Of a DNA stretch of 64,000 bases, positions 401 through 59,612 are shown piece after piece. Under the pieces are notes generated by a model. It had not been told where the DNA came from and did no database searches. It saw only the letters and a program-made list of their open reading frames with translations. The position numbers and the translations under genes were made by a program. The DNA lies in NCBI GenBank assembly GCA_030697645.1, contig JAUYPI010000018.1:10457-74456 (forward strand), in the 5' to 3' direction. Source of the stretch: a bacterium (lineage in GTDB: Bacteria; Patescibacteriota; Minisyncoccia; Phycocordibacterales; VMGT01). The stretch's first letter is position 1, and the number at the start of each line of letters is the position of its first letter.

Positions 401-577
401 AATTTCCAAATTCCAAAAAACAAGCTCCAAACCAAATAAATTCCAAGCTCCAACCAACAAGCTCCAAACAAATTTCAAATTCCCATGCATCAAATCTCAA
501 ACACGCACGTCGTGTTTGGAAATTGGATTTTGAATATTGAGACTTGTTTGGAAATTGTTGGTTGGAAATTGGAGCTT
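401..577. repeat. Palindromic heptad-repeat element, B-type (TTTCCAA / TTGGAAA units around a CAAACACGCACGTCGTGTTTGG core)
   Basis: Left arm repeats AATTCCAAGCTCCAA-like units and the right arm is its reverse complement. The same architecture recurs at 9293, 31509 and 57371. Confidence 0.8.
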
Positions 578-646
578 ATGCGGGCTTCGACCATGGCGCT
601 GCATGTTGTTTACTGCTTGCCGCATACTGCTTGCTGCCAGGCCGTG

Positions 647-1129
647 TCAGTAAAGTGTATCAGTGATCGTTTTATACGCCTCATATTTCTCCGGCGCGCC
701 TTTAGTCTCGTAGAATATGCGCGCGATTTCGTCGACACCAGCGAGGAGCGCGACGGCATCTTCGGTGTGCGGATCTTGCTTGAGCTTCGAGGCGAGTTTT
801 ATGGTTTTCCAGAAAAGCTCATGGAGGTTCGGATATTTCTCAAGGTGCTCGGGTTTGAAGAAGTCTGACCAAAGGATTTCAAGTTCGCGCTTCACGAGCT
901 CGGCATGTTGCTCCTTGATCATAATGCGCCGCATGAGAGCGTTGTGATATGCGTTGATTGCGAGCATGTCGTTTTCATCTCCGGGCAGCGGCAGCGTATC
1001 GAGCTGCTCGACCATGCGCGCAACCGTTTTTGCGGCAATTTTCGCCGGTGTGGGATCGTAGATTCCGCACGGGATGTCACAGTGCGCCTCGGCGCGGATC
1101 GTGTGGATGAGTTTCATAGACGTTCTCAC
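647..1129 (-). CDS. sodN: nickel-containing superoxide dismutase (NiSOD) precursor
   Basis: After a short leader the sequence reads HCDIPCGIYDP, the Ni-hook motif, and ILWSDFFKPEHLEKYPNLH matches the NiSOD four-helix core. A propeptide precedes His1. Confidence 0.85.
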   Translation of the reverse strand: MRTSMKLIHTIRAEAHCDIPCGIYDPTPAKIAAKTVARMVEQLDTLPLPGDENDMLAINAYHNALMRRIMIKEQHAELVKRELEILWSDFFKPEHLEKYPNLHELFWKTIKLASKLKQDPHTEDAVALLAGVDEIARIFYETKGAPEKYEAYKTITDTLY

Positions 1130-1197
1130 TAAAGTTACGCGAATAATGGTAAACGTAGTATAGCAAAGCCGAGCATGGCACGGAAGCCCGCGAGGAA

Positions 1198-2118
1198 GTG
1201 GACGTCGCTCTGCTGCGCGCGCAGCCGCGGCGAGATGCTATACTGCCTCTAATGACGCCAGATTTTTTTGCCCACCACCAATATCGTGATTACGTGATTT
1301 ATACCGCGCTTGCAAGACGCGAGCGTAATCCGGAGTTCCGTCGGATTCTCGAGCTCCTGATTGGCCAGGAGTACACCGACTACGAGTTCTGGAAACAGTT
1401 TGCAACGCAAAAAGAGTTCCGCGTGCGGCGGCTTGATGTTGTGTTTTACCTGCTGCTGCGGCGGCTCTTCGGCCTCACGTTTACCGCGAAGTTTCTTGAG
1501 GGACGTGAGCGGCTTATGATCGAGCGCTACGAGCGCTACATCGCGGGAGTCAAAGATGCTGCGCTCCGAGTGCGGATGGAGGAGGTGCTCGCGCATGAGC
1601 GCGAGCACGAGCGGTACTTCATCAACCAGGTGAGGGAGGGAAAAGTGGAGTTCATGTCGAGTATCGTCTTGGGGCTTAATGACGGCCTGATCGAGCTCAC
1701 CGGTGCGCTCACCGGTTTCTCTTTTGCGCTTGGCACGACGCGCCTCGTTGCCGCGGCCGGGCTCATCACCGGCGTCGCGGCGTCGCTCTCTATGGCCGCA
1801 AGCGCATTCCTCCAGGCCGAGTTTGAGGCAGGGAAGCGGCCGCAGAGCGCCGCGCTCTACACCGGCGTCTCGTACCTCGCGGTCGTCGGCATCCTCGTCG
1901 CACCGTTTTTCTTTTTCGGCAGCGTTTTTTCGGCGCTCGCCCTGATGCTTACGAGCGCCGTCGCGATCATCGCCGCGGTGTCGTTTTACACCGCCGTGAT
2001 CTTCGGCCGCTCCTTCGCGCGCCAGCTCGGCACGATGCTTTTCTTCAGCCTCGGCGTTGCGGCAGTTGCATTCTCGATCGGGTTTCTTTTTCGTACACTC
2101 ACAGGCGTTACGGTATAA
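1198..2118 (+). CDS. VIT1/CCC1-family iron/manganese transporter with an N-terminal ferritin-like (rubrerythrin-type) domain. The start may be the internal Met near 1252
   Basis: N-terminal ferritin-like helices with ExxH-type motifs (EVLAHEREHE) are followed by a glycine-rich multi-TM domain typical of VIT1. The gene is divergent from sodN. Confidence 0.7.
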   Translation: MDVALLRAQPRRDAILPLMTPDFFAHHQYRDYVIYTALARRERNPEFRRILELLIGQEYTDYEFWKQFATQKEFRVRRLDVVFYLLLRRLFGLTFTAKFLEGRERLMIERYERYIAGVKDAALRVRMEEVLAHEREHERYFINQVREGKVEFMSSIVLGLNDGLIELTGALTGFSFALGTTRLVAAAGLITGVAASLSMAASAFLQAEFEAGKRPQSAALYTGVSYLAVVGILVAPFFFFGSVFSALALMLTSAVAIIAAVSFYTAVIFGRSFARQLGTMLFFSLGVAAVAFSIGFLFRTLTGVTV

Positions 2119-2184
2119 GGGTGGCAGTTTGCGAGCGTACCTTTCCCCTGCTCTAGTTTTCGTCGTGTTGGCTGCGGAATGTTG

Positions 2185-3135: not shown

Positions 3136-3139
3136 GGTT

Positions 3140-3384
3140 TACACAATGTTTACACAATTTCCAATTTCTAACTTCTGATTTTTGAGTACGGACTTACCTC
3201 AATTCGAAATCAGAAATTAAAAATCCGAAGTTGCGTTAGCAAAATTCGAATTTGCGTCAGCGGTTTGCACAATTTTCAATTTTCAAGGGCCCAATTTTCA
3301 AACACGACCGTCGTCGTTATTGAGTCATTGACACATTAAAAATTGATTGAAAATTGCAAAATTGAAAATTGGAAATTAAGTGAT
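3140..3384. repeat. Composite palindromic heptad-repeat region: a degenerate arm at 3140-3262 plus a canonical A-type palindrome at 3271-3377
   Basis: AATTTTCAATTTTCAA...CAAACACGACCGTCGTCG...ATTGAGTCATTGACACATT...GAAAATTGCAAAATTGAAAATT. It sits between two minus-strand sugar-nucleotide genes. Confidence 0.8.
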
Positions 3385-4158: not shown

Positions 4159-4250
4159 AGAAAATATGCACTTTCTGTAACTTCGCACGCCTGTGCGACG
4201 CTACATGCCTGGGCGCTACTCTCGCGAGCCCGCGTGAGATACAATGCTTA

Positions 4251-4430
4251 GGCCCCGTCCATAAATACCTTCCCCATCTCGCACTCACTGCACGCCCTTA
4301 TCGAGCATCGTGCTCAATCGCGAAATCCTCATCGTATCTCGATACGTCTCGGATTCGCTCATTCCGCGCCAAGCTGCATCAGGCCATGCACTGAGCACGA
4401 TATTAGGGGAACTTATTTATGGACGGGGCC
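4251..4430. mobile_element. MITE-like structured element, copy 1, with 17-bp terminal inverted repeats (GGCCCCGTCCATAAATA ... TATTTATGGACGGGGCC)
   Basis: Perfect terminal inverted repeats read directly from the sequence. The internal 145 bp is about 90% identical, in reverse orientation, to the copy at 60669-60845, and contains further internal inverted repeats. Confidence 0.75.
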
Positions 4431-4436
4431 TTACTG

Positions 4437-5300: not shown

Positions 5301-5381
5301 GGGCGAGAGAACGATTGACATATATTAAAGTGCGTGCTACACCTGACATAGGGGTTTTTCGATAGCCACGCCACCTTACAT

Positions 5382-5813
5382 GTGGAGGAATCATCGATGA
5401 CGTTTTATGTTGTCAGACAGTATGGTGGTTCAGAACGTCGCCTCCAGGGAGTTTTGGTCGTTAGAAAATCAGAGTATTTTGTTATGGAGGCTTTGATCTC
5501 TGAGTGTCATGATACGCGCTTAAAACGCGTAAAAGAAGGACCTATCGCTGATCGAGCGCATGCTATCGAATTTGATTTAGGGCCTGAACGCGACTTTATT
5601 CCTCCTGCACTTCAGGAAGTATTACGACGTGCTGTCGACGACGGGTGTATGTTGAAATGGATGGTGGTCGACGAAAATCCTAGATTATTTTTCAGTCGTT
5701 GGGATGGGCGTTACAGTACCGAACGCGCCTTTACCGAATGGGAGGAGGTAGGAAAACAAGATGGAGGGCTAGAGGTCGTTCGAGATTATGCAGAAGAGGT
5801 TTCTCGATCGTAA
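5382..5813 (+). CDS. hypothetical protein, encoded in a lower-GC (~48%) segment
   Basis: Clean ORF followed by a strong terminator. Composition differs from the flanking DNA. No recognisable motif. Confidence 0.5.
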   Translation: MEESSMTFYVVRQYGGSERRLQGVLVVRKSEYFVMEALISECHDTRLKRVKEGPIADRAHAIEFDLGPERDFIPPALQEVLRRAVDDGCMLKWMVVDENPRLFFSRWDGRYSTERAFTEWEEVGKQDGGLEVVRDYAEEVSRS

Positions 5814-5834
5814 ACCGTAGAAAGCCTGCCGTAT

Positions 5835-5877
5835 CCCTGTGCTCGTGTTTGTCTCACGAGCACAGGGCTTATTTTTT
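5835..5877 (+). terminator. rho-independent terminator
   Basis: CCCTGTGCTCGTG-TTTGTC-TCACGAGCACAGGG hairpin followed by a CTTATTTTTT tract. Confidence 0.8.
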
Positions 5878-5948
5878 CATGCTTCAATTTGCTAATCAGC
5901 GAGGATTTTGGTTTGATAAAGCACAATGCATACCTCTCTGGTGTGCGC

Positions 5949-6023
5949 GCGAGCGTAGTTCAGTGGTAGAACGCTGACCTGATAAGTCAGAGGTCGAAGG
6001 TTCGATTCCTTCCGCTCGCACCA
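5949..6023 (+). tRNA. tRNA-Ile (anticodon GAT), CCA encoded
   Basis: Cloverleaf: acceptor GCGAGCG/CGCTCGC, D-arm GTAGTTCAGTGGTAGAAC, anticodon stem-loop CTGAC-CTGATAA-GTCAG, T-arm GAAGGTTCGATTCCTTC, 3' ACCA. Confidence 0.85.
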
Positions 6024-6046
6024 GATAGGAAAAGTCAAAGCATTTC

Positions 6047-6929
6047 GGAAAGGCGGCGGAGCCGCACCGCTCAAAACCGCAAAAGAACCTGGAGAAAAAC
6101 ATCGGCTCGCCTGCCCGCCTCTGGAGGGAACCATATTTTAATTTTGGGGGAAGAAAATTTTTTAATCCTATGAATAAGAAGGTTACTTTTTTTATAGGTT
6201 TATTAGGATATATATTCGCGGGAATAATAGCGCGATTAGTTTTTAGTAAATCTTCTTTTTATCCAGGGTTAGGATTACAGACTGCCGACTACTCAATTGC
6301 CAATTTAGCTTTTCTATCAATTATTCCCGCGATAATTTTTGTATTGTTTTTTTTCATTTTTCATTATCTATTTAAAGATAGAGAAAATATTATTTTAAAG
6401 TCAAGCGGTTTTATTTTAGTATTTTCTTCTATCTCAATTTATATATGGCGTACACTTTTAGTTTTTGGAATAGGTAGTAATGATCTTCCTATCGATCCAA
6501 TAATAGGATTATTGGGATTTGTTGGAACGCTTACGACATTTATTTATCTCTCCTATCATTCTCTCCGTCTTTATAAAAGTAGCAGCCGTTTATGGGTAGC
6601 CGAACTGATTGCATCAATAGTTGTTTTAGTATCAGGGACTATTTTTAGTGCTTCTGAGTTGTCATATGTAGGTCTAGTCTTACTACCTGCGAGCCTCGTA
6701 TTTTTCCTATTTTCTTTTTTCACCCTACTTATTAAATCATGGAGAGAAACACATAAGTCATCATTTTTCTTCTCTATTCTTGGTCTACTCGTCATAATTT
6801 TCTCAACAGGGCTAGTTTTTGTCATTAAAGTACTTTCCGAATGTTGCCACTGATTATTAACAACTTTTAAGATGGGTCGCCGCCAAAGAAAAATTGGAAA
6901 TTGTTATCGGTGCGGCTCCGCCGCCTTTC
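6047..6929. mobile_element. AT-rich inserted segment bounded by perfect 23-bp inverted repeats (GGAAAGGCGGCGGAGCCGCACCG / CGGTGCGGCTCCGCCGCCTTTCC), 24 bp downstream of tRNA-Ile
   Basis: The inverted repeats were read directly at 6047-6069 and 6907-6929. The enclosed DNA is ~30% GC against ~60% flanking. Confidence 0.6.
6170..6853 (+). CDS. hypothetical multi-pass membrane protein (AT-rich, probably foreign)
   Basis: Six or more hydrophobic segments and Ile/Phe/Leu/Lys-rich composition. It lies inside the inverted-repeat-bounded segment. Confidence 0.55.
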   Translation: MNKKVTFFIGLLGYIFAGIIARLVFSKSSFYPGLGLQTADYSIANLAFLSIIPAIIFVLFFFIFHYLFKDRENIILKSSGFILVFSSISIYIWRTLLVFGIGSNDLPIDPIIGLLGFVGTLTTFIYLSYHSLRLYKSSSRLWVAELIASIVVLVSGTIFSASELSYVGLVLLPASLVFFLFSFFTLLIKSWRETHKSSFFFSILGLLVIIFSTGLVFVIKVLSECCH

Positions 6930-7016
6930 CGAATTTTCGCGGGGGGATTTCTTCGCCGCCGCAGGCGGCGAAATGCGTTCGGACTAATTTAAGTAAGAAT
7001 GCTGCATGACGTTGTT

Positions 7017-7598: not shown

Positions 7599-7795
7599 TT
7601 CGACTACCATCTTCTTTCGGCGACGGTAGCCGAGTACGATGTCGTTTTATGAAAGGCGAGTATGTACAAGAGAAAGCGCGACCGCGGTCGGCACGGAGGC
7701 CGCCGCGGCTCGAGTGGAAAGTCGCGCGACGCGGCTCACGGCCGGTGCGGAAAGCACGTGCAATAGAGACGAAGTAGCGGCGGCAGTCGTGCACA

Positions 7796-9292: not shown

Positions 9293-9445
9293 AGCAAAAT
9301 TCGAAATCCGAAACAAATCGAATTTCCAAGCAACCAATTTCCAAATTTTCAAATCTCAAACACGAACAACGTTCGGGTTTAGAAATTGGAGCTTTGAGAT
9401 TTGGAAATTGTCTTCCAAATTGATTCCTTGGAGCTTGGAAATTCG
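9293..9445. repeat. Palindromic heptad-repeat element, B-type
   Basis: AATTTCCAAGCAACCAATTTCCAAATTTTCAAATCTCAAACACGAACAACGTTCGGGTTTAGAAATTGGAGCTTTGAGATTTGGAAATT... It lies immediately 5' of the DHH gene start on the minus strand. Confidence 0.8.
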
Positions 9446-9576
9446 GGCATTGCCTGTATTTTGTGCTTCGATATTCGGATTTAGTGGGCTGAGGCATCGG
9501 ACGCCCCACAATTTTGTTGTTCAGCGCAAAAAGTGCCAACTAAAACGAATTTTGCTAGAGTATAGCATAGTCTTTC

Positions 9577-10772: not shown

Positions 10773-12359
10773 ATGGGTGACTACAGCGCTTATTTTCGCG
10801 GCAAGCAGATTACGCTAATAGGCCTGGGGCTTCTTGGGCGCGGTGTTAATGTGGCGAAGTTTCTTGCGGAGTGTGGGGCGGATATGCTCGTGACCGATTT
10901 GAAAACGAAGGATCAGCTTCAGCCGTCGCTTAAAAAACTCGCGCGGTTTAAGAATATTCGCTTCGTGCTCGGCGAGCACCGACTCGAGAACTTCCGGGGT
11001 GTCGACATGGTGATCAAGGCCGCGGGCGTGCCGCTTGATTCGCCGTTTATCGCCGAGGCTCGCTCACATGGCGTGCCGGTCAAAATGGACGCGTCACTCT
11101 TTGCCGAGCTCGCGCCGCCCGGCGTGCTTCTTGTCGGCATTACCGGAACGCGCGGGAAGTCAACGACGACGCAGTTGCTCTACGAGGTGCTAAACGACTG
11201 GCGTAAGGTATTAGGTGTTAGGTATCAGGTTGGCGGACGTTCCGGCCACGAACTCCCCAGTTACCAGTTACCAGTTACCAGTCCCTCGCGGTCACATCGC
11301 GTCTTCCTCGGCGGTAACATCCGTGGCATGGCAACCCTGCCACTCCTCAAAAAAGTCCGCCCTGGCGACATCGTCGTTCTCGAGCTCGACTCGTGGCAGC
11401 TTCAGGGCTTCGGCGAGGCGAAGATCAGTCCGCACGTTGCGGTTTTTACGACATTTTTCGATGACCACCTTAATTACTATGATAGGGACCGCGGACGTTA
11501 TTTGAAGGATAAGGCAAACATTTTTACATACCAAAGTGGCGTAAAAAATTTTCAATTTTCAATTTTCAATTTTCAAACTCGGCCAGTATTGATTGTGGGC
11601 GCACAGGCGGCACCTTTGATACGCAAACATTTTGCGGAGCACGCACAGCGGATGAAGGTGGTGCGGCCGAGCAATGTACCGAAAAATTGGAAGCTCGCGA
11701 TTCCTGGCGAGCATAATCGCGCGAATGCTGCCTCGGCGCTCGTGGCGGCGGATGCACTTGGTGTGCCGCGTTCGGTCAGCAAGCGCGCTATTACTTCTTT
11801 TCATGGTCTCCCCGGTCGCCTCGAGCTCGTGCGAGAGCTCCGCGGCGTCAAAATTTATAACGACACGTGTGCGACGACTCCGGAGGCAACGATCGCCGCG
11901 CTCCGCGCGCTCGGCAGACTAAGCAGCAAGCAGCAAGCAGCAAGCAGCAAGGTCCATCGGATAATTCTTATTATGGGTGGAGCGGACAAAGGGCTCGACA
12001 TGTCGGGGCTGCTCAAGGAGATTCCAAGGTATTGCAGAGCAGTTATTTGGCTTCCGGGTACTGGCACAAATAGAATTATGAAGCATGAATCAAGAAGCAT
12101 GGAAACGGAAGCAATAATTCATTATTCCAAATTCTTGATTCAAGAGATGTACACAACCACACTGAGCGCGGCAATAAAGCAGGCGGTCCTTGTCGCAAGG
12201 AAGGGGGATAGTATTCTCTTCAGCCCCGCCTTCGCCTCATTCGGCATGTTCAAGAATGAGTACGACCGGGGAGAAAAATTTAATCGCGCGGTAGCGGCCC
12301 GTAAAGACACGACCCGCGCGAAGGCGCGGGTCAGTAGAATGCAACATAACGAATCTTAA
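10773..12359 (+). CDS. murD: UDP-N-acetylmuramoyl-L-alanine--D-glutamate ligase, enlarged by three in-frame heptanucleotide-repeat insertions
   Basis: Mur ligase ATP motif GITGTRGKSTTT, central and C-terminal Mur ligase domains (GGADKG, SPAFASFGMF). At 528 aa it is longer than a typical ~450 aa MurD. The coding sequence contains (TTACCAG)3 at 11261-11283, (AATTTTC)4 at 11547-11576 and (CAAGCAG)4-5 at 11921-11951. Confidence 0.85.
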   Translation: MGDYSAYFRGKQITLIGLGLLGRGVNVAKFLAECGADMLVTDLKTKDQLQPSLKKLARFKNIRFVLGEHRLENFRGVDMVIKAAGVPLDSPFIAEARSHGVPVKMDASLFAELAPPGVLLVGITGTRGKSTTTQLLYEVLNDWRKVLGVRYQVGGRSGHELPSYQLPVTSPSRSHRVFLGGNIRGMATLPLLKKVRPGDIVVLELDSWQLQGFGEAKISPHVAVFTTFFDDHLNYYDRDRGRYLKDKANIFTYQSGVKNFQFSIFNFQTRPVLIVGAQAAPLIRKHFAEHAQRMKVVRPSNVPKNWKLAIPGEHNRANAASALVAADALGVPRSVSKRAITSFHGLPGRLELVRELRGVKIYNDTCATTPEATIAALRALGRLSSKQQAASSKVHRIILIMGGADKGLDMSGLLKEIPRYCRAVIWLPGTGTNRIMKHESRSMETEAIIHYSKFLIQEMYTTTLSAAIKQAVLVARKGDSILFSPAFASFGMFKNEYDRGEKFNRAVAARKDTTRAKARVSRMQHNES

Positions 12360-17607: not shown

Positions 17608-17726
17608 AGGAAAAGGTTAATTATCGCGAGTAAAATCGACCCAAACCCTTACACCTAGCCATTATAGGGCACTATCGGCGGTGCGCAAATGATAAAAATC
17701 GTGACTGTGGATAGCGAAAGTGGACG

Positions 17727-17817
17727 TGTATCTTGTATTTTGTATTTCGTAGTTTGTATAAAAGCTGAATCTCGCTATACAAAATACGAGATACAAGATA
17801 CGAAATACAAGCTACAA
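17727..17817. promoter_or_regulatory. Long imperfect AT-rich palindrome between rny and the HU gene
   Basis: GTATCTTGTATTTTGTATTTCGTAGTTTGTATA ... TATACAAAATACGAGATACAAGATACGAAATACAAGCTACAAG, imperfectly complementary arms around 17767. Confidence 0.4.
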
Positions 17818-17818
17818 G

Positions 17819-19348
17819 TTACCGCGCGAACTCTATCGCCCTGGTCTCGCGAATCACGGTTACTTTGATCTCTCCCGGAAATTTGAGCTCCTGCTCGACG
17901 CGTATTGCGATCTCGCGCGCGGTGGCGCGCGCCTCGGCGTCGGAGACGTCCTCGGGCTTCACAAAAATGCGTATCTCGCGGCCTGCCGAGAGGGCGAAGG
18001 ATTTTTCGATTCCCGGGAACGAGTTGGCGATCGCTTCGAGGTCTCCGAGGCGCTTGAGGTAGTTCTCTACGCTGTCGCGGCGCGCGCCGGGGCGGCCTCC
18101 GGAGATCGCGTCCGCGACTTGGACGATGATGGACTCGAGCGTCTCGTACGGGTATTCCTCATGGTGCGATTGCATGGCGAGAACGATCGCGGGGTCCACG
18201 TTGAACTTCTGAAGGATGCGTCGCCCGATCTCAACATGCGTACCTTGCACGTCGTGATCCACGGCCTTGCCGATATCGTGGAGGAGTGCCCCTGCGCGCG
18301 CGACAGCGGGGTTTGCGCCGACCTCCTCGGCGATCATGCCTGCGATATGGGCCATTTCGATTGAGTGCTGGAGCACGTTCTGTCCGTAGCTCGTGCGGAA
18401 ATGGAGGCGCCCCAGGATGCCGAGGAGCTTCGGGTCGAGGTTGAGCGCGCTGCACTCATAGGCGGCCTGCTCGCCTTTCTCTTTGATGATTTTACTGATG
18501 TCCGCCTGGGCTTTCTCAACAAGATCCTCGATCCGCGCGGGCTGGATTCTGCCGTCGAGGATGAGATTCTCGAGTGCGAGGCGCGCGACGTGGCGGCGCA
18601 CCGGATCAAAACAGGAGAGCGTGATCACCCCCGGCGTGTCGTCAACAATCACCTCGACGCCGGTTGCGCGCTCAAAGGCTTTGATATTGCGGCCCTCTTT
18701 GCCGATAATTTTTCCCTTGACGTCGTCCGAGGGGAGGGCCACGGTTGTCGCGAGCGTCTCCGAGGTGACGGCGTTCCCGAGCCTATGGATCGCGGTCGTG
18801 AGGATCTCGCGCGCGCGGCGCTCCAGGCGCTCGAGACCCGCGCTCTCGAGCTTCTGGACGCGCACCATCATGTCCTGGTCGAAATTTTTCTCGACCGTCG
18901 CGAGCAGTTCCGCGCGAGCCGCCTCCTCACTGAGACCCGCGACGCGCTCGAGCTCGCTCTGCTTGCGGCGCTCGAGTTCCTCGGCTCGCGCGCGTACCGC
19001 TTTTACCTCCTCGACTTTCTGCTTCACCCGCTCGACCTCGGCGTCAATCTCGCCTTGCCTGCGGTCGAGGAGTTCTTCTTTTTTAATAAAGCGCTCTTCG
19101 GTGCGTCTGAATTCGCCCTCACGGGTCTTCAGCGTGCGCTCGAATTCGGCCATCCCGACTTTTGCCTTTTCTTCTCCCTCGGCGACGATTTTTTGTGACT
19201 TTTCCTTGGCGTCAAGCATCATCTGCTTAATCGCAAGTTCCATCGAGCCCTTTTTTCCGAGCGAGACGATCCAGCGCAGGAAATATCCGAACGCTGTGCC
19301 TAGTAGGCCGGAGGCGGCGGCGAGAGCCAGTGCTATTTTAAGTGACAT
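17819..19348 (-). CDS. rny: ribonuclease Y
   Basis: N-terminal TM, long coiled-coil, KH domain (GKIIGKEGRNIK), and HD domain (HSIEMAHIAG...LLHDIGK). Confidence 0.9.
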   Translation of the reverse strand: MSLKIALALAAASGLLGTAFGYFLRWIVSLGKKGSMELAIKQMMLDAKEKSQKIVAEGEEKAKVGMAEFERTLKTREGEFRRTEERFIKKEELLDRRQGEIDAEVERVKQKVEEVKAVRARAEELERRKQSELERVAGLSEEAARAELLATVEKNFDQDMMVRVQKLESAGLERLERRAREILTTAIHRLGNAVTSETLATTVALPSDDVKGKIIGKEGRNIKAFERATGVEVIVDDTPGVITLSCFDPVRRHVARLALENLILDGRIQPARIEDLVEKAQADISKIIKEKGEQAAYECSALNLDPKLLGILGRLHFRTSYGQNVLQHSIEMAHIAGMIAEEVGANPAVARAGALLHDIGKAVDHDVQGTHVEIGRRILQKFNVDPAIVLAMQSHHEEYPYETLESIIVQVADAISGGRPGARRDSVENYLKRLGDLEAIANSFPGIEKSFALSAGREIRIFVKPEDVSDAEARATAREIAIRVEQELKFPGEIKVTVIRETRAIEFAR

Positions 19349-20243: not shown

Positions 20244-20372
20244 AATTTTCAATTTCTAATTTTCAATCAATTTTCAATTATTCAATTTTCAAACACGAAC
20301 GGCGCGCCACCGTCATTGGATCATTGTAACATTGAAAATTTATTGGAAATTGAAAATTGTAAATTGAAAATT
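20244..20372. repeat. Palindromic heptad-repeat element, A-type, ending 4 nt before the pilB ATG
   Basis: AATTTTCAATTTCTAATTTTCAATCAATTTTCAATTATTCAATTTTCAAACACGAACGGCGCGCCACCGTCATTGGATCATTGTAACATTGAAAATTTATTGGAAATTGAAAATTGTAAATTGAAAATT. Confidence 0.85.
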
Positions 20373-22145: not shown

Positions 22146-22265
22146 AAATTTTCAATTTTCAATTTTGCAATTTTCAATCAATTTTGCAATGACTCAATTT
22201 TCAAACACGAACGACGTCGTCGTCATTGAGACGTTGAAAATTTATTGAAAATTGAAAATTGAGAA
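22146..22265. repeat. Palindromic heptad-repeat element, A-type, between pilB and pilC
   Basis: AAATTTTCAATTTTCAATTTTGCAATTTTCAATCAATTTTGCAATGACTCAATTTTCAAACACGAACGACGTCGTCGTCATTGAGACGTTGAAAATTTATTGAAAATTGAAAATTGAGAATTGGAAATTG. Confidence 0.85.
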
Positions 22266-22283
22266 TTGGAAATTGCGATAGCT

Positions 22284-23513: not shown

Positions 23514-23539
23514 GTTTGTATAGCGCAAAGTGCTGCTAG

Positions 23540-23657
23540 AATTTTCAATTTACAATTTTCAATTTTCATTAAATTTTCAATTCCTCAATTTTCAAACACG
23601 AACGACGCCGCCGGCATTGAATCATTGACACATTGAAAATTGCAAAATTGAAAATTT
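23540..23657. repeat. Palindromic heptad-repeat element, A-type
   Basis: GAATTTTCAATTTACAATTTTCAATTTTCATTAAATTTTCAATTCCTCAATTTTCAAACACGAACGACGCCGCCGGCATTGAATCATTGACACATTGAAAATTGCAAAATTGAAAATTT. Confidence 0.85.
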
Positions 23658-23714
23658 AAGATACGGCGAGCACTTTGGTTTTGGCATGTGATATTAGTGC
23701 GACTACCAGTATTT

Positions 23715-24190: not shown

Positions 24191-24308
24191 AATTTTCAAT
24201 TTACAATTTTCAATCAATTTTCAATTACCCAATTCTCAAACACGACGCCGTCCGTAATTGAGTCATTGAAACATTGAAAATTTATTGAAAATTGAGAATT
24301 GGAAATTT
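24191..24308. repeat. Palindromic heptad-repeat element, A-type
   Basis: AATTTTCAATTTACAATTTTCAATCAATTTTCAATTACCCAATTCTCAAACACGACGCCGTCCGTAATTGAGTCATTGAAACATTGAAAATTTATTGAAAATTGAGAATTGGAAATTT. Confidence 0.85.
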
Positions 24309-25367: not shown

Positions 25368-25660
25368 GAAATTTTCAATTTTCAATTTTGCAATTTTCAA
25401 TAAATTTTCAATGAATCAATTTTCAAACACGTAACCACTCACCTTCGTACACAACCGCGTAACAAAGCCGTCATTGCGAGGAGCAAGATCCCTTCGCTTC
25501 GCTCGGGACAGGCTCCGCAATTCAGAGTCAGTACGTAAAACCCCTGGATTGCTTCGCTCCTTTTAGTCGCTCGCAAAGACGGGCGTGAGTGATTACTCAA
25601 ACACGAACGGTGCCGTGGTCATTGAGACATTGAACCATTGAAAATTGCAAATTGAAAATT
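25368..25660. repeat. Palindromic heptad-repeat element, A-type, split by a nested 165-bp insertion
   Basis: The left arm ends ...CAATTTTCAAACACG at 25431 and the repeat resumes TCAAACACGAACGGTGCCGTGGTCATTGAGACATTGAACCATTGAAAATTGCAAATTGAAAATT at 25596, directly abutting the ATG at 25661. Confidence 0.85.
25431..25595. mobile_element. MITE-like insertion with 12-bp terminal inverted repeats (GTAACCACTCAC / GTGAGTGATTAC, one mismatch) and an 8-bp target-site duplication (TCAAACAC)
   Basis: Inverted-repeat ends and duplicated TCAAACAC on both flanks read directly from the sequence. The insertion interrupts an otherwise typical palindromic repeat at its core. Confidence 0.7.
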
Positions 25661-26213: not shown

Positions 26214-26327
26214 AAATTTTTAATTATCAATTTTGCAATTTTCAATCAATTTTCAATTACCCAATTTTCAAACACGACGCCGTCGTCATTGAGTCATTGA
26301 AACATTGAAAATTGTAAATTGAAAATT
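26214..26327. repeat. Palindromic heptad-repeat element, A-type, abutting the ATG at 26328
   Basis: AATTATCAATTTTGCAATTTTCAATCAATTTTCAATTACCCAATTTTCAAACACGACGCCGTCGTCATTGAGTCATTGAAACATTGAAAATTGTAAATTGAAAATT. Confidence 0.85.
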
Positions 26328-27620: not shown

Positions 27621-27660
27621 GGCGAATTTCCAATTTCCAATAACCAATTTCCAAACAATT
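27621..27660. repeat. Heptad-repeat fragment (B-type units) upstream of tpiA
   Basis: GAATTTCCAATTTCCAATAACCAATTTCCAAACAATTTTGC. The ORF track translates it as a spurious N-terminal extension of TpiA. Confidence 0.6.
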
Positions 27661-28493: not shown

Positions 28494-28625
28494 AATTTTC
28501 AATGCTCAATTTTCAATTTTCAATCAATTTTCAATTACTCAATTTTCAAACACGACGCAGCCCGTCTTTGAATCATTGGGACATTGAAAATTTATTGGAA
28601 ATTGGAAATTGGAAATTGGAAATTT
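28494..28625. repeat. Palindromic heptad-repeat element, hybrid: A-type left arm and B-type right arm (GGAAATTGGAAATTGGAAATT)
   Basis: GAATTTTCAATGCTCAATTTTCAATTTTCAATCAATTTTCAATTACTCAATTTTCAAACACGACGCAGCCCGTCTTTGAATCATTGGGACATTGAAAATTTATTGGAAATTGGAAATTGGAAATTGGAAATTT. Confidence 0.85.
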
Positions 28626-31508: not shown

Positions 31509-31667
31509 AATTCCAAGCTCCAACCAACAAATTCCACGTAAATTCCAAGCTCCAAAAAACAAGCTCCAAACAAATTCCAATGATTCAAATTCCAATTTCC
31601 AAACACGCACGTTTGAGATTTGGAGTTTGAGATTTGTTTGGAAATTGTTTTTTGGAATTTGGAAATT
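31509..31667. repeat. Palindromic heptad-repeat element, B-type, upstream of smpB
   Basis: AATTCCAAGCTCCAACCAACAAATTCCACGTAAATTCCAAGCTCCAAAAAACAAGCTCCAAACAAATTCCAATGATTCAAATTCCAATTTCCAAACACGCACGTTTGAGATTTGGAGTTTGAGATTTGTTTGGAAATTGTTTTTTGGAATTTGGAAATT. Confidence 0.85.
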
Positions 31668-53336: not shown

Positions 53337-53708
53337 CTACATAGTAGCCCTATATGCCTTTATCCTATCCTTATCTTCGTTTTCCGATTCACCCTTGAAA
53401 TAAATCTCAATAAACTCGACCTTCAGTGTTTGGACATGGAAAGCGTAGATGATCCTGATCCCACTTTTCACTCCACGTCCCTTCAATGCCTTACAAGCAA
53501 ATTTTTTGAGTTTGCAAATTAGAACCTCGTCAGTACAGAATTGCGGCATCGGGAAGATTGCCTGCTTATTGATCTTTTGGGTGTGGTAAAGCTCAGTGGC
53601 GAACGCCTTGGCAACCTCAATATCTTCGTTGAGGGAGTGAAATTTCTTGAGAAGTCTCTTGAGATCACGCTCAAATTCTTCCGTGGAGCTATAAGTCAGT
53701 TTCGTCAT
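53337..53708 (-). CDS. RelE/ParE-fold toxin (ParE_toxin-like)
   Basis: C-terminal LKGRGVKSGIRIIYAFHVQTLKVEFIEIYFKG resembles the ParE/RelE core (Y-R-I-I-Y ... hydrophobic ... K). It overlaps the upstream HTH-antitoxin gene by 20 nt. ~35% GC. Confidence 0.55.
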   Translation of the reverse strand: MTKLTYSSTEEFERDLKRLLKKFHSLNEDIEVAKAFATELYHTQKINKQAIFPMPQFCTDEVLICKLKKFACKALKGRGVKSGIRIIYAFHVQTLKVEFIEIYFKGESENEDKDRIKAYRATM

Positions 53709-54468
53709 AGATCCGTACGGAAGTTTCCGGAGTTCGATAAAAGACAGATTCGTATTTTATGATTTGCCCCTCTTCGGTCCCAAGCCAGGGCACATCTTTA
53801 TGAGAGTAGTCGCTCAATTCAGTCGCGGTTTTATCGGAAAGTCGAGAAAGCACTTCGTCTATATGTTTGATTTCTTGGGCATTTAGGACGGAAATATCAG
53901 CATCTCTTCGCGGAAGATACTTGGTTTGCTCGTGTTGAAAATACTTGCTCTTGACCGTCTCTAGTTCGCCTTTCTTCTCCATTGACTCAACGATCTTCTT
54001 AAACTCAACTGGAGTCGGTCCGAAATGATTCCGTGTGTATGTTGCTCCAATGAGCTGTTCTTCAAACTTTTCGTAAAAATCAAAGTCAATAAAGTAGAGT
54101 AGCTTATACAGCACCGTCATACCGACATTTGGTTTACTGCCGACTTTCTTAAGTATATAAAGCAAAACCTCCTTGAACTTTTTAACATGACGTTGGGGCA
54201 CATCAATACGCATCTCCTGTTTCGGGGAGCTGTGGGCTTTTTCACTTAAAGAAACTTTGACGTCCGGAGCTACCTTGCCTGCAATCAGATCTGAAAATGA
54301 AATATTAAAAATTTGGGCGATCTTGTTCGCCTGGGAGAGAGTGAGTTCTTTTGCCCCCTTCTCAATTTCTATATAACTCGCACGAGAAACACCGATTTTA
54401 TCAGCCACAAAAGCCTGCGAAAGCCCCTGCTTATTACGCAGTTCTAGTAGAAAATAGTGCTTAATCAT
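53689..54468 (-). CDS. XRE-family HTH fused to a Panacea (DUF4065, SocA-like) antitoxin domain
   Basis: N-terminal HTH (LRNKQGLSQAFVADKIGVSRASYIEIEKG). The C-terminal VLYKLLYFIDFDFYEKFEEQLIGATYTRNHFGPTPVEF matches the DUF4065/Panacea pattern. Confidence 0.65.
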   Translation of the reverse strand: MIKHYFLLELRNKQGLSQAFVADKIGVSRASYIEIEKGAKELTLSQANKIAQIFNISFSDLIAGKVAPDVKVSLSEKAHSSPKQEMRIDVPQRHVKKFKEVLLYILKKVGSKPNVGMTVLYKLLYFIDFDFYEKFEEQLIGATYTRNHFGPTPVEFKKIVESMEKKGELETVKSKYFQHEQTKYLPRRDADISVLNAQEIKHIDEVLSRLSDKTATELSDYSHKDVPWLGTEEGQIIKYESVFYRTPETSVRIYDETDL

Positions 54469-54650
54469 GGTTTGAGTATAGCAAACGGGAATAAGTTGTC
54501 AAGTATTCCGACAATCTAACTGTTGATAATCTTGACAACGAAAATGCGAGGAGTAAAATAGCAAAAGAGTGGCACTGTTGCGGCAGTAACCACTCGATCA
54601 TTCGGAAAGGCTTTTTAGCCCTTTGGGGCCTTCCGGCCTATCTCTGCACA

Positions 54651-54929
54651 ATGCGATCCAACAATTTCATTCTAACAGACCTAGACTCATTAACAAACAA
54701 GGGTTATAAACTTCTTCACAAAATGCCCTATTACACTCGTAATACTGGCAAACCGTGGAAGGCACAAGACGTTTCCCAACTCAGGCAACTGATTCATCAA
54801 AATGCCCCGACGCGGGTAGCCGGATTCAAACTTGGGAGAACTGATGATGCAGTCAGGGCCGAGGCAAGCAAAATAGGCCTCAGTCTCAAACCGGCAAATC
54901 AGTCCCCGTACACTCGCCGTAAGTCGTAG
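54651..54929 (+). CDS. hypothetical small protein (AT-rich islet)
   Basis: ORF with no recognisable motif. Confidence 0.35.
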   Translation: MRSNNFILTDLDSLTNKGYKLLHKMPYYTRNTGKPWKAQDVSQLRQLIHQNAPTRVAGFKLGRTDDAVRAEASKIGLSLKPANQSPYTRRKS

Positions 54930-55003
54930 GTAATAAAAGAGGAGCAGAGCCGCAACCTGCTCCTCTTTTATTTCCCAGATTTAGTTCGATTATCTTGTTT
55001 GCA

Positions 55004-55468
55004 TTACCGATTTCCTTTTGCCCGGTTGTGTGTTTTGCACAACATCTGGCAATTTTCGACGATAGTTTTACCGCCTTCATGCCAAGGAGTAATGTGATCT
55101 GCTTCCATTTCTGAAATATCGTACTTCTTCTTACAAAATGGGCAAATACCATTTTGCCGCTCGTATGCTTCGCGCTTCATCTTGTCGGTAAAAGCACGGA
55201 TTGAAAGATAGTTCTCTCGTCTTGTCAGAACATACGGATAAATACCGGATTTTTTGGTAACATCCTCGTCTTGCATTAACTCTTTAATTTCGGTTTCCAG
55301 TTTAGCGGCGTTTAGTTTCTTATCTTTGTATTGGTTGTGTAGTTCTCCCCAATTTACATGCGCCATTTCATGTCGATAATTTGGAAAAGTTTTTCGCACC
55401 CACGCAATCACATCTTGGAAGTATTGCCACAACTCATCAGCATTTCTGTCGTGCTGATGTTTGGCCAT
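55004..55468 (-). CDS. HNH-family nuclease domain protein (DUF1524 / McrA-like His-Me finger), probably a remnant of a larger defence gene
   Basis: CPFCKKKYDISEMEADHITPWHEGGKTIVENCQMLCKTHNRAKGN is an HNH motif with Cys-pairs and an H-N-N/H arrangement. Confidence 0.7.
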   Translation of the reverse strand: MAKHQHDRNADELWQYFQDVIAWVRKTFPNYRHEMAHVNWGELHNQYKDKKLNAAKLETEIKELMQDEDVTKKSGIYPYVLTRRENYLSIRAFTDKMKREAYERQNGICPFCKKKYDISEMEADHITPWHEGGKTIVENCQMLCKTHNRAKGNR

Positions 55469-55559
55469 ATAATCTTCTATTTTGCCGTCATTTATCCATG
55501 AAAGCGTGGTTTCTAAGTATTCTTGCCGGATTGGTGAGCCGCTAACTAATTGTCCGCCG

Positions 55560-55916
55560 TCATTCGCTAACAGATACGCCGCACAGTTTGATTTGCTGAA
55601 TTTTAAAGATTTCTTTGTAAGTAATCGCGTTTTGATTACCCATAATTAAGAACTTTTTCTTGTGCTTTACTAGTTGAGCAACATATTCACGGAATAAAGA
55701 AAATGGAGGGTTGGTTATGACTATATCGGATTGCTTGAGTGATTCGATGCATTCGTCGCTCCGAAAGTCACCACTACCACGCAGAGGGGTTGCGGTGTTC
55801 TTGTCGTGTTTGAGCAAATACTTAACGTCATCAAGATTTATCGCTCCATCCTTGTCGATATCCGGCACTTTTGTAATTTCAATTTTGAAAGGTTGTTTGC
55901 CTTTTGATCCAGCCAC
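55560..55916 (-). pseudogene. fragment of an N6-adenine DNA methyltransferase (motif IV only)
   Basis: VITNPPF catalytic motif in a 118-aa ORF with no motif I or target-recognition domain. Different frame from the downstream HNH ORF. GTG start. Confidence 0.5.
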
Positions 55917-56060
55917 TTCAAATAACGGTAATTGCCCTCCAACAATCGGTGAACCGCTGTAGCTTGTAGTGATGAGCTTTTTCAGCCCGAGAGCGTTGAA
56001 ATTAGATGCAAAGTATTTGAAAAAGTTGCTCTCATGTGGATCATCGCAATTACAATATTA

Positions 56061-57254: not shown

Positions 57255-57370
57255 TCCAGTGGCAACTGTGTATCCGGTGGACAATGAATCCGCGATTCAG
57301 ATGTCCCCCCGTCATTTCTAAATCCGAAGTCTGGATATGGAGATCAAACATACCCAGAATACCAAGCTCG

Positions 57371-57510
57371 AATTTCCAAATTCCAAAAAACAAGTTCCAA
57401 ACAAATCACAATACTCAAAATCCAATTTCCAAACACGACGTGCGTGTTTGGGATTTGATGCATTGAAATTTGAAATTTGTTTGGAACTTGTTGGTTGGAG
57501 CTTGGAGTTT
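57371..57510. repeat. Palindromic heptad-repeat element, B-type, upstream of pilM
   Basis: AATTTCCAAATTCCAAAAAACAAGTTCCAAACAAATCACAATACTCAAAATCCAATTTCCAAACACGACGTGCGTGTTTGGGATTTGATGCATTGAAATTTGAAATTTGTTTGGAACTTGTTGGTTGGAGCTTGGAGTTT. Confidence 0.85.
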
Positions 57511-57668
57511 ATGACTCGGAGTCTCGGGTCGGCAATTTCGTTATTCACCGTGCTCATATTCTTGCTCCACTCGAATGCGGGAAGCGTACGAGGTTCTCAA
57601 CAGGCGCATGGTAGAGCTCGCTCACGCGGCGCGGTATACTAGAGGTGCGGCAGACCTTTGCCTCTACC

Positions 57669-58811
57669 ATGGCAGCTACAGTGCTCACTCACACGCCTGC
57701 GCTCCGCGGCGCCTCTCTCGGTGATCGGATTCTTGACTGGTTTCCGGCGCCGAAACTGCTTGCGCTGCCTGCAATAGGCATTGACATCTCAGAGAGCGCC
57801 GTTCGCTACATAGAGCTTTGCCGTACGGCAGCAGGCGTGAGGCTTGGTTCCTTTGGCGACATTGCTCTTGGAGCAGGCACATTCCAGAGTGGCGGCATCG
57901 CAGATCGTGCACGGGTCGTGGACGCGCTGCGGCGCGTGCGCAGCGTGATCCGTACTCCCTACGTGTGGGCTTCTCTACCGACTGAGAGGGCATACATTTT
58001 CGAGGTCGCACTGCCATCGCGCACTATTGGATATGCTGATCTGCGGCGAACGATTGAGTTCCACCTCGAGGAGCACGTGCCGCTTGCCTCACGTGACGCT
58101 ATCATCGATGTTGTCACCGCAGATCTGCTCGCCCCCTTGGCCGGGGCCGCCGTCGTTGCAGTGCCGGCTACACTGGCCGAGGAGTATCTCGGCGTTTTTC
58201 ATGAGAGCGGGCTGCGCCCGCTCTCGCTTGAAGTCGCTGCGGAGGCCGTAGCGCGCGCTCTTGTGGTCCCCGGGGATGCCGAGACCGTCCTCATCCTGCG
58301 TATGGGGAGCGACCGTACGTCCCTCATCTTCGCCCGCTCTGCGGTGGCGTTGTTCGCCTCGACGATTGAGTTTGGTGGAGCGGCGCTTACGGCCGCGCTC
58401 GCACATGAGCTCGGGATCGTCGTGGATGAGGCGGAGCGTCTTAAGCGCGAGAGCGGGCTCATCGCGAGTGCGGAGAATAAGCGCATCTCTACGACGCTCG
58501 GCGAGCATGTAGGCGTTCTTGTCAAGGAGGTCGCGCGTTACATCGGGTACTGGAGTACGCACGGAGCCGAGACGCCGAGCGGCGAGGCTCTAAAAGCTGG
58601 CCGGCAGGGCGTCTCCCGCGTGTATCTCTGCGGCGGCGGGGCAAATCTTCGCGGTCTCGCGTCACATCTCAGCTCCGCGCTCGCTCTCCCGGTCTCTCTT
58701 GCCGATGTGTGGACGAGCTGTTTTTCGCTCGACGAGTATATTCCGACGCTCCCGCGGCACGAATCACTGGCGTATTGCGCTGCAGTCGGCCTTGCCCTCC
58801 GAGGGCTGTGA
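57669..58811 (+). CDS. pilM: type IV pilus assembly protein PilM (actin-like ATPase fold). An alternative GTG start lies at 57645
   Basis: AIGIDISESAVRYIEL N-terminal sugar-kinase/actin-fold motif and C-terminal LCGGGANLRGL. It is followed by a pilN-like gene. Confidence 0.75.
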   Translation: MAATVLTHTPALRGASLGDRILDWFPAPKLLALPAIGIDISESAVRYIELCRTAAGVRLGSFGDIALGAGTFQSGGIADRARVVDALRRVRSVIRTPYVWASLPTERAYIFEVALPSRTIGYADLRRTIEFHLEEHVPLASRDAIIDVVTADLLAPLAGAAVVAVPATLAEEYLGVFHESGLRPLSLEVAAEAVARALVVPGDAETVLILRMGSDRTSLIFARSAVALFASTIEFGGAALTAALAHELGIVVDEAERLKRESGLIASAENKRISTTLGEHVGVLVKEVARYIGYWSTHGAETPSGEALKAGRQGVSRVYLCGGGANLRGLASHLSSALALPVSLADVWTSCFSLDEYIPTLPRHESLAYCAAVGLALRGL

Positions 58812-58835
58812 TAAGAGGAGCTAGAGGAAATAATA

Positions 58836-59393
58836 ATGTCAAATCTTCTTCCGATAGTAGAAAAACGATTATTGCTGCGCGAGTATCGGCTCCGCACGGG
58901 AATCGCGATCCTGTATTTTCTCGGAGCGCTTGCGGCGATCGGCGCCGTTGCGCTCATCCCCTCGCTCGTGCGCGTCCACTCGCTCGTTTCCTCGGTGGAG
59001 CGTGCGCGACAATTCGAGGAGAAAACCCTTGAGCAACTCGGCGCCTCCGCTGTCGCACATGGCTTCCGGGAAGCGAACGAGGAACTTGCCTCACTCGCGT
59101 CTATCCTCACAGAGCCCGAGCTCGCGGTTCTCGTGCATACCGTTGCGGTCGTTCGTCCTGCCAGCGTTTCTATTCAGAGCATTGCGTATGAACCGAAGGG
59201 CGATGGAGCTGGATCGCTTACCCTCGGCGGTACGGCGATGCTTCGGGATGATCTGCTGCAGTTCGTCGAGGCGCTCCGGCGCGAGGCGGCGTTCGTCGCC
59301 GTCAATCTTCCGATCGGCGCCCTCGCGCGTGAGCGCGACGCGAATTTCACTATTTCGGTTAAGCTTGCGGAGAAGGAGCGGACGGGGGAGTGA
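58836..59393 (+). CDS. pilN: type IV pilus assembly protein PilN
   Basis: MSNLLPIVEKRLL, the NLLP motif at the N-terminus, and a single TM. A GAGGAG ribosome-binding site lies 8 nt upstream. Confidence 0.75.
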   Translation: MSNLLPIVEKRLLLREYRLRTGIAILYFLGALAAIGAVALIPSLVRVHSLVSSVERARQFEEKTLEQLGASAVAHGFREANEELASLASILTEPELAVLVHTVAVVRPASVSIQSIAYEPKGDGAGSLTLGGTAMLRDDLLQFVEALRREAAFVAVNLPIGALARERDANFTISVKLAEKERTGE

Positions 59394-59487
59394 GATGTGC
59401 AGGACGCAAGGCCTGAAAGCCGATGTTCCCAAATAATCAATAAGCAAGATATAAAAAGTTCAAATGCCAAAATCGAAATGTCAACGA

Positions 59488-59612
59488 AATTTTCAATTTT
59501 GCAATTTTCAATCAATTTTGCAATGACACAATTTTCAAACACGACGTCGTCCGTCATTGAGCATTGAAACATTGAAAATTCATTGAAAATTGCAAAATTG
59601 AAAATTGTAAAT
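59488..59612. repeat. Palindromic heptad-repeat element, A-type, upstream of the pilO-like gene
   Basis: AAATTTTCAATTTTGCAATTTTCAATCAATTTTGCAATGACACAATTTTCAAACACGACGTCGTCCGTCATTGAGCATTGAAACATTGAAAATTCATTGAAAATTGCAAAATTGAAAATTGTAAATT. Confidence 0.85.

Follow-up and report, generated by a model that had tools for sequence, protein, structure and literature searches.

Hairpin repeats beside pilus genes of a Patescibacterium as probable gene-less shells of a selfish four-helix-bundle cassette

We analysed a 64-kb stretch of the genome of an ultra-small Patescibacterium, which belongs to the Paceibacteria (Parcubacteria) close to Candidatus Taylorbacteria (contig JAUYPI010000018.1, positions 10,457 to 74,456, called the window here), in which long palindromic repeats made of tandem heptads lie between genes, among them the genes of a pilus operon. 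We consider it probable that these repeats are gene-less shells, resembling miniature inverted-repeat transposable elements (MITEs), of a small selfish cassette, and not a switch built for the purpose of controlling the pilus. The parent cassette, which is widespread in Patescibacteria, carries a gene of ~120 codons for a four-helix-bundle protein (PF05635 / TIGR02436, the S23p protein of 23S ribosomal RNA (rRNA) intervening sequences), and this gene is enclosed by two long inverted arms of tandem heptads. Our alignments show that the conserved centre of the repeats corresponds to the start codon and first six codons of this cassette gene, that both arms match the cassette flanks as homologues, and that internal deletion of the gene yields just this kind of hairpin. 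They also show that copies are quickly gained, lost and replaced at the few sites where a compact genome can bear them, namely in spacers, in the loops of older hairpins and in permissive protein loops.

The window holds 13 full copies and two one-armed fragments (11547 and 27621), all at the loci listed in the preliminary description of this DNA, where the features described are indeed present. We name each element by its coordinate in that description, so that, for example, 22146 is 22147..22275 (Table 1). A tandem-repeat scan and an inverted-repeat scan each recover the elements independently. Nine copies are of type A (3271, 20244, 22146, 23540, 24191, 25368, 26214, 28494 and 59488), with a left arm of AATTTTC heptads, a centre TTTTCAAACACG...GTCATTGAG.CATTGAAACATT and a right arm of GAAAATT heptads. 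The four type B copies (401, 9293, 31509 and 57371) are made of the units GCTCCAAAC/TTCCAA, and the core CAAACACG is common to both types. Each arm has 4-8 heptads, the number varying from copy to copy, and the elements are A+T-rich and 107-185 bp long, except for 25368, whose loop contains a nested element of 166 bp that brings its length to 291 bp.

The 12-mer core TTTTCAAACACG occurs 14 times in the window with at most one mismatch, compared with 0.43 occurrences expected from shuffles, and the elements sum to 1,932 bases, or 3.0% of the window. CAAACACG is found 15 times on the plus strand and 6 times on the minus strand, and all 13 copies carry the core on the plus strand. The terminal inverted repeats of every full copy are predicted to form a long RNA stem, as had been proposed, with 35-57 pairs and energies of -24 to -60 kcal/mol (z -3.6 to -9.0); no shuffled sequence out of 200 reached the stability of the elements. 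Hairpins made of other heptads or short units are also present, at 17724-17822 and 3147-3241, and the second of these is probably a related element of a different flavour.

The nature of the core became apparent from the contigs and loci fetched for comparison, which are labelled L001-L086. In L013, a Saccharibacteria contig, the core runs straight into an open reading frame (ORF) of the PF05635 family and the right arm follows the stop codon of that ORF. The ATG lies within the arm motif itself, since CAATGGCTCAATTTTCAAACACG reads ATG GCT CAA TTT TCA AAC ACG. The core of 22146, CAATGACTCAATTTTCAAACACG, is ATG ACT CAA TTT TCA AAC ACG, or MTQFSNT; 22146, 59488 and 25368 all still read ATG A.. 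CAA TTT TCA AAC ACG, and the type B cores read Q-I/F-S/P-N-T. The family was assigned by matches to PF05635 (23S_rRNA_IVP) at 8e-15 and to TIGR02436 (79.6 bits, cut-off 24). A database search with the L013 four-helix-bundle protein gave 2,591 homologues, and among the best 120 of these, more than 100, which are Patescibacterial, have the N-terminus M-x-Q-F-S-N-x-YDLEERTAKFGE. Several over-long gene calls among the homologues read NFQFSISNQF, the peptide encoded by AATTTTC heptads.

We examined eleven gene-bearing or decaying cassettes, in L013, L036, L044 (two), L057, L061, L076 (two), L082, L083 and L084. Intact genes sit between such arms in all of these loci apart from L044, where the copies are decayed. 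In nine of the eleven, including the cassette of L083, the arms are of the AATTTTC type or the closely related AATTTCC; arms of other heptads are found in both of the decayed copies in L044 and in the second cassette of L076. All eleven are co-oriented with the upstream gene. In alignments, the two arms of window elements are 85-90% identical to the flanks of the gene in L057 (Wildermuthbacteria), with 47/52 and 44/49 for the arms of 59488 and 53/59 for 22146. L084 has an intact cassette and, one gene downstream, a copy that retains 13 codons and an identical 3' flank while ~320 nt of the gene are gone. This deleted copy near an intact cassette is direct evidence that gene-less hairpins arise by internal deletion, and when aligned to the cassettes, both the L084 copy and the window copies share the inverted ends of the longer gene-bearing element and are internally deleted. 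Because the same gene sits between the same heptad arms in other genomes, we regard the window copies as gene-less derivatives, and based on these alignments they are very probably homologous to the four-helix-bundle cassettes.

Comparison with related genomes indicates rapid turnover. The closest relatives, L051/L052 (PilB 91% identical, pilB 85% at the nucleotide level) and L054 (89% and 80%), have the same gene order as the window. In L051, each of the six pilus-operon spacers contains a 100-130-nt hairpin of GTCAAAA/GCAAAAG heptads without the CAAACACG core, and the pilB-pilC spacer of L054 contains AGCTTAT/AGCTAAA heptads. The sole CAAACACG-bearing copy in L051 is upstream of pgk and closely resembles 57371 of the window, which is upstream of pilM. 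L071-L080, representing one organism from related samples, have a type A cassette directly upstream of pilB. Between pilB and pilC, some of these contigs carry another four-helix-bundle cassette and others a gene-less hairpin that is 146 nt long and made of AAATCCT heptads. The rny-hup spacer, which in the window is occupied by a hairpin of other heptads, carries an intact four-helix-bundle cassette in L083, another Patescibacterium. Nested insertions are found in the loop of 25368 and also in L054 and L051. The turnover or recombination of arms suggested in the preliminary description is thus well founded, in that the spacers of relatives hold hairpins of different heptads and strains differ in having a cassette or a hairpin. 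In distant pilus operons (L020, L055-L060), the gene junctions are tight save where an element sits.

Searching for the exact pattern CAATNNNNCAATTTTCAAACACG turned up true copies in metagenome-assembled genomes of Patescibacteria (Andersenbacteria, Saccharibacteria and other bins) and ~30 copies in metagenome contigs; these sequences span 33-58% G+C and the build is identical throughout. A profile search gave one or two elements per 10-kb locus. Most elements elsewhere flank non-pilus genes, and among the ~30 pattern-based loci, pilB/pilC lies next to an element only in L020. The heptad pattern was not found in viral contigs, and we rejected phage carriage for that reason.

Table 1. Heptad-repeat elements, fragments and other hairpins in the window (z, z-score of the predicted fold)
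Feature	Coordinates	Strand	z	Location and remarks
Type B	401..579	+		68 nt 3' of minus-strand sodN (647-1129); core ATG CAT CAA ATC TCA AAC ACG; left arm longer than right
Hairpin, other short units	3147..3241			AATTTCC, TTCTGATTT/AAATCAGAA, AAATCCGAA
Type A	3271..3377	+	-4.8	between minus-strand NTP-transferase (stop 3385) and epimerase (start 3135) genes
Type B	9293..9446 (hairpin 9318-9446)	+	-5.8	divergent spacer between DHH-family gene (minus, ATG 9289) and tRNA-Leu (9577)
Left-arm fragment, AATTTTC x4.3	11547..11576	+		in frame in MurD-like ligase gene 10773-12359
Hairpin, TGTATTT/ATACAAG heptads	17724..17822		-6.8	rny-hup spacer, both genes minus
Type A	20244..20372	+	-3.8	ends 4 nt before pilB ATG (20377)
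Type A	22147..22275	+	-8.5	fills pilB-pilC spacer: 3 nt past pilB stop, 8 nt before pilC ATG (22284); keeps ATG ACT CAA TTT TCA AAC ACG
Type A	23540..23659	+	-3.6	downstream of pilC, 55 nt before pilin ATG (23715); enclosed by outer stem CAAAGTGCT...AGCACTTTG (23526-23677)
Type A	24191..24307	+	-9.0	between two pilin genes, 11 nt before ATG 24319
Type A	25370..25660	+		abuts ATG 25661; loop holds nested 166-bp insert
Nested insert	25432-25597			unrelated, palindromic; terminal inverted repeats GTAACCACTCAC/GTGAGTGATTAC; flanking direct repeat of TCAAACACG
Type A	26214..26327	+	-5.5	abuts ATG 26328 of large pilus-operon protein
Orphan left arm, AATTTCC x4	27625..27654	+		upstream of tpiA
Type A	28494..28625	+	-8.6	tpiA-pgk spacer; right arm GGAAATT x4
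Type B	31509..31667 (hairpin 31543-31667)	+	-8.8	divergent spacer upstream of smpB (ATG 31694)
Type B	57371..57510	+	-9.0	upstream of pilM operon; abuts 44-codon ORF (57511-57642); pilM start 134 nt further on
Type A	59488..59613	+	-7.2	after pilN, 44-95 nt before next gene; arms 97% complementary

Pfam scans of the window identified sodN, epimerase, NTP-transferase, DHH-family protein, MurD-like ligase, dxr and rny genes, the pilB-pilC-pilins operon followed by tpiA and pgk, smpB beside the tmRNA gene, and the pilM/pilN operon. The preliminary description had most copies ending 0-10 nt before a start codon, and about half of them do lie this close or nearly so. The distance from the end of the element to the likeliest start is 0 nt for two pilus-operon genes, 4 nt for pilB, 8 nt for pilC and 11 nt for the second pilin gene, while it is 26 nt for smpB, 55 nt for the first pilin gene, 44-95 nt for the gene after 59488 and 134 nt for pilM; only 5-6 of the 13 copies abut a start codon. 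For pgk, the sole in-frame start upstream of the PGK domain is TTG 28609, 17 nt inside the right arm of 28494, and if pgk starts there, its first five codons would be heptad sequence within the stem. Upstream stop codons are equally near, 3-29 nt from the elements, which are better described as filling whole spacers. Copies 9293 and 31509 are in divergent spacers, 401 is 3' of a minus-strand gene and 3271 is between two genes on the minus strand, and is therefore anti-oriented to its neighbours. We also noted that the ORF abutting 57371 (MTRSLGSAISLFTVLIFLLHS...) starts directly at the end of the element and has a hydrophobic N-terminus.

The right arm of 28494 had been taken as a type B arm on a hybrid element, which we correct here: GGAAATT is a heptad variant that pairs with AATTTTC through G-U pairs. 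It is also the exact complement of 27625-27654, and since these two arms are complementary, 27625-27654 and 28594-28624 bracket tpiA. Complementary heptad arms also bracket rpsO (L004 4237-4994) and nusB (L006 101-688). Transcripts with such arms could form long-range stems around a gene, comparable to the stems that flank 16S and 23S rRNA.

The fragment at 11547 adds the in-frame peptide NFQFSIFNFQ to the MurD-like protein, and the segment SGVKNFQFSIFNF is missing from seven homologues. This gene has four tandem-heptamer arrays (11206-11230, 11257-11282, 11547-11576 and 11921-11951, with the units AGGTATT, CCAGTTA, AATTTTC and AAGCAGC), all of them where homologues have gaps. The closest MurD-like homologue, P0241, has a different repeat-encoded peptide (RSDEAIS...RFARDD) in a loop of its own. 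Repeats are evidently being inserted in frame into an enzyme, the MurD-like ligase.

How such insertions might be tolerated can be sketched as follows. The cassette would have no promoter of its own and would ride on host operons, so that long, well-transcribed operons such as the pilus operon would collect it. Once transcribed, the arms would pair into a double-stranded RNA stem of 35-57 bp, a candidate substrate for ribonuclease III (RNase III), which would cut the hairpin from the polycistronic transcript as it does with 23S rRNA intervening sequences. The pilus mRNA would then be split into shorter units with A/U-rich ends, and the insertion would thereby be tolerable. Changes in mRNA stability or translation, if any, would follow as a side effect, as they do for the Correia elements of Neisseria. 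Judging from the length of the stem and the precedent of the intervening sequences, we consider it an evenly balanced question whether RNase III cuts these operon transcripts and whether insertion is tolerated for that reason.

The preliminary description had favoured a shared cis-regulatory leader of the pilus genes over scattered MITEs. Our results do not agree with this, because the core is a relic coding start, MTQFSNT, and not a regulatory box; because gene-less copies elsewhere are split between 16 co-oriented and 14 anti-oriented with respect to their neighbour genes; because copies are also found at 3' ends and between minus-strand genes, with one fragment in a coding gene; and because relatives at 82-85% nucleotide identity carry unlike hairpins in the same spacers. 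When both strands were folded, neither the energy nor the G-U pairing differed consistently between them, so there is no sign of selection on one transcript. A duplex-energy matrix did not find arm-to-arm compensation, with a mean of -33.0 kcal/mol for an element's own pairs and -35.8 kcal/mol for cross pairs (permutation p 0.93). A promoter search of the arms gave only minimal 9-of-12 matches (TTGAAA-N17/18-GAAAAT), on both strands, and we discount them because A+T-rich repeats would be expected to give such matches. A terminator search of 19.5-32.5 kb gave 18 candidate sites, none of which falls on an element body. In Rfam, no family reached its gathering score, and the only matches were to plant microRNA precursors at 24-38 bits against cut-offs of 74-140. 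The strand, arm-pairing, promoter, terminator and Rfam tests give no support to a dedicated leader.

The proposal that the 3' arm of the hairpin occludes the ribosome-binding site fared no better. Shine-Dalgarno motifs are present in just 8/42 genes, so there is generally no such site for an arm to occlude, and we rejected this mechanism; since the motif is scarce in this genome, its lack beside the elements is nothing special either. The link to the pilus is recurrent, as had been noted: in three of six look-ups, homologous cassettes were in pilus operons, and the window, L020 and L071-L080 all have an element in the spacer that precedes pilB. It does not extend to a regulon-specific leader, which is unsupported. 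The persistence of hairpins in pilus spacers and the recurrence of cassettes in pilus operons nevertheless leave room for a secondary, acquired role.

Several observations weigh against reading the repeats as simple selfish shells. This same recurrence of cassettes in pilus operons is one of them. The arms are far better conserved than the genes of their hosts, being 82-87% identical between organisms whose PilB proteins are only 43% identical, which fits horizontal spread and would fit a sequence-specific function as well. A hairpin is present in all six pilus-operon spacers of the window and of L051 and in both readable spacers of L054, the one further relative whose spacers could be read. 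Comparing orthologous spacers, as had been suggested, finds a hairpin in every readable one of these relatives and its sequence not conserved. That every readable spacer has one despite deletion pressure could mean that the hairpin is selected for, or that new insertions are drawn to old hairpins. The 13 window copies all share one orientation, including 3271, and because that copy runs against the genes on either side of it, gene direction is not enough to account for the uniform orientation; we also noted co-orientation within element pairs of L008, L019 and L039. A tblastn search detected no intact four-helix-bundle gene in the window, whose copies keep only the ATG and six codons, and no RNase III gene is present in the window. 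No direct repeat flanks the copies, the terminal AATT belonging to the arm, in a comparison for which close relatives offered no empty site, and no transposase gene is beside any of the eleven cassettes examined.

Some of these points speak for a rival explanation, that the hairpins are domesticated cis-regulatory or processing elements, kept to set the relative expression of the pilus genes, whether by hiding start codons up to the point of RNase III cleavage of the stem or by insulating cistrons. Hairpins in each readable pilus spacer (six each in the window and L051, two in L054) in spite of differing sequences, cassettes or hairpins recurring beside pilB in distant lineages, the five copies that end 0-11 nt before a start and the pgk start inside an arm all favour it. 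We nevertheless believe domestication to be unlikely, given the even orientation elsewhere, the flanking of mostly unrelated genes outside this genome, the occupation of one and the same spacer by a cassette or a hairpin depending on the strain, the tight, hairpin-free pilus junctions in L020 and L055-L060, the failure to find compensation between arms, and the copies that lie 3' of genes, between two genes of the minus strand or within a coding gene. Termination, attenuation or REP-like 3' stabilisation of the upstream mRNA (REP, repetitive extragenic palindrome) might be expected of very stable hairpins that begin 3-29 nt past stop codons, and T runs do follow some copies elsewhere (L014, L018, L038). 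No element fits the terminator pattern, however, as the stems are A/U-rich and without a U tract, and the elements sit within obvious operons, where termination would be harmful; we think this explanation very improbable.

We see just as little prospect for ordinary transposase-driven repeats, that is, REPs or bacterial interspersed mosaic elements (BIMEs) with a REP-associated tyrosine transposase, or MITEs of an insertion sequence family. A Y1 transposase gene weakly similar to the REP-associated ones is present in L051/L052 and L027, and the position of all 13 window copies on one strand is reminiscent of single-strand transposition. This transposase scores only 40.5 bits against a cut-off of 80, is missing from the window and has its gene flanked by unrelated hairpins of its own (GGACATCGGATGTCC), and we rejected it as the mobiliser on these grounds; moreover, full-length relatives of the repeats encode the four-helix-bundle protein and no transposase, and no target-site duplication was seen. 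The Y1 gene, of the IS200/REP-associated type (L052 1145-1834, also L051 3-437 and L027 2-292), together with its hairpins TCTTTGGACATCGGATGTCCAAAGA, makes up another palindrome system, independent of the first, that the relatives have and the window lacks. Recombination sites that bracket and shuffle genes at the DNA level, as integron attC sites do, are scarcely credible: the complementary arms that bracket tpiA (27625-27654 with 28594-28624), rpsO (L004) and nusB (L006), the co-orientation of copies and a difference in gene content between the window and L051 at exactly such a site are what they would predict, but there is no integrase domain among the 40 window proteins scanned, conserved attC-type core sites are lacking and the genes between the arms have housekeeping roles and a conserved order. 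More speculatively, heptad-armed cassettes may form a distinct class of mobile element without a conventional transposase, with gene-less hairpins co-opted as RNase III-dependent punctuation of pilus (DNA-uptake) operons. Insertion into hairpin loops would then proceed through an RNA or single-strand intermediate, perhaps helped by the four-helix-bundle protein, a relative of Avd, the accessory protein of diversity-generating retroelements. This would account for a hairpin in every readable pilus spacer despite replacement of the sequence, and for arms that are better conserved than host genes; we regard it as doubtful, and gene-less shells of a selfish cassette as the explanation to prefer.

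To our knowledge, no function has been assigned to the S23p or four-helix-bundle protein of rRNA intervening sequences, and how these elements spread has been an open question since the 1990s. The window presents this kind of element living outside rRNA, in abundance, with turnover at the level of strains and with gene-less hairpins across a compact genome, and so offers many natural before-and-after sites for studying insertion, deletion and RNA processing. The elements also have practical consequences, in that they break short-read assemblies at every gene junction, cause over-long gene calls and add repeat-encoded peptides to enzymes. Looking for a longer contig of the same organism in public short-read assemblies gave only single-gene ones: two Logan contigs, L001 and L086, contain pilB alone and pilC alone, and end ~45 nt into the flanking repeats. 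If RNase III cuts the elements, the operon structure of Patescibacteria cannot be read from gene order alone.

Other repeats and features were noted in the window. The insert nested in 25368 has an internal GTCATTGCGAGG...CGCAAAGAC motif and comes from a repeat family of many uncultured bacteria; we found no further copy of it in any of the sequences fetched. A 182-bp element is present in two copies (4250-4431 and 60668-60846) that are 90.7% identical and in opposite orientation, next to a metallo-beta-lactamase-fold gene in one case and to a tRNA cluster in the other. It has terminal inverted repeats of 18-26 bp (AGGCCCCGTCCATAAATA...) and TA/TAA flanks, and is a conventional MITE, unrelated to the heptad elements. 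Two islands of low G+C (~0.42-0.44 as compared with ~0.55 elsewhere) are probably acquired DNA. The one at 5380-7600 has unassigned ORFs beside a methyladenine glycosylase gene, and the one at 53690-55920 has an HTH-SocA/Panacea antitoxin-like gene, an HNH endonuclease gene and a fragment of an EcoRI-type adenine methylase gene. At 44942-44989, in a region free of heptad elements, is a perfect 23-bp palindrome with a 2-nt centre (CCGCACATCACGAACCGCGCAGC/GCTGCGCGGTTCGTGATGTGCGG).

We found no published account of the heptad element in Patescibacteria in a search that left subscription journals outside, which is consistent with its not having been recognised as a described element; several known systems resemble it in part. 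The Correia (nemis) elements of Neisseria, a naturally competent and piliated host, are short gene-less inverted repeats, dense beside genes and co-transcribed with them; RNase III cleaves their hairpins, which has secondary effects on mRNA stability. The window elements are likewise gene-less inverted repeats that lie densely beside genes, but there is no relation in sequence; in Correia elements the terminal repeats are short and the target duplication is TA, and we know of no heptad arrays or gene-bearing parent for them. MITEs are similar in being gene-less internal-deletion derivatives that keep both inverted ends, in being multicopy and in being present or absent depending on the strain, whereas here the parent has no recognisable transposase, the ends are long heptad arrays and no target-site duplication was found. 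REPs and BIMEs are also dense intergenic palindromes between co-transcribed genes, but REPs are 20-40 nt long and G+C-rich, unlike the much longer A+T-rich elements of the window. Rickettsia palindromic elements insert in frame in protein genes, and the short tandemly repeated repetitive (STRR) sequences of cyanobacteria are arrays of tandem heptamers. Both features recur here, as in the fragment in the Mur ligase gene, again with no sequence relation, and STRR sequences are not long palindromes around a gene.

The closest counterpart is the rRNA intervening sequence of Coxiella, Leptospira and others. The window has no rRNA gene, and all of its copies are between or inside protein or tRNA genes. 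They differ from the intervening sequences in lying in the spacers of protein operons, in having lost the gene, in numbering 15 in 64 kb and in having much longer arms, with 35-57 bp of pairing, that consist almost wholly of heptads; cleavage by RNase III, demonstrated for the intervening sequences, would be predicted for the window elements by analogy. The resemblances are extensive: the same protein family in the full-length form, a gene in the loop of a stem, variable tandem heptamers before the start codon, decay or loss of the gene, selfish behaviour and a sporadic distribution. PF05635 genes have been noted in rRNA-gene insertions of these bacteria (PMC11270868). The Coxiella intervening sequence, which has been called selfish, carries its S23p gene in the loop of a 28-bp stem of terminal inverted repeats, with variable tandem heptamers before the start codon of a decaying gene, and is excised by RNase III (PMC4990558).

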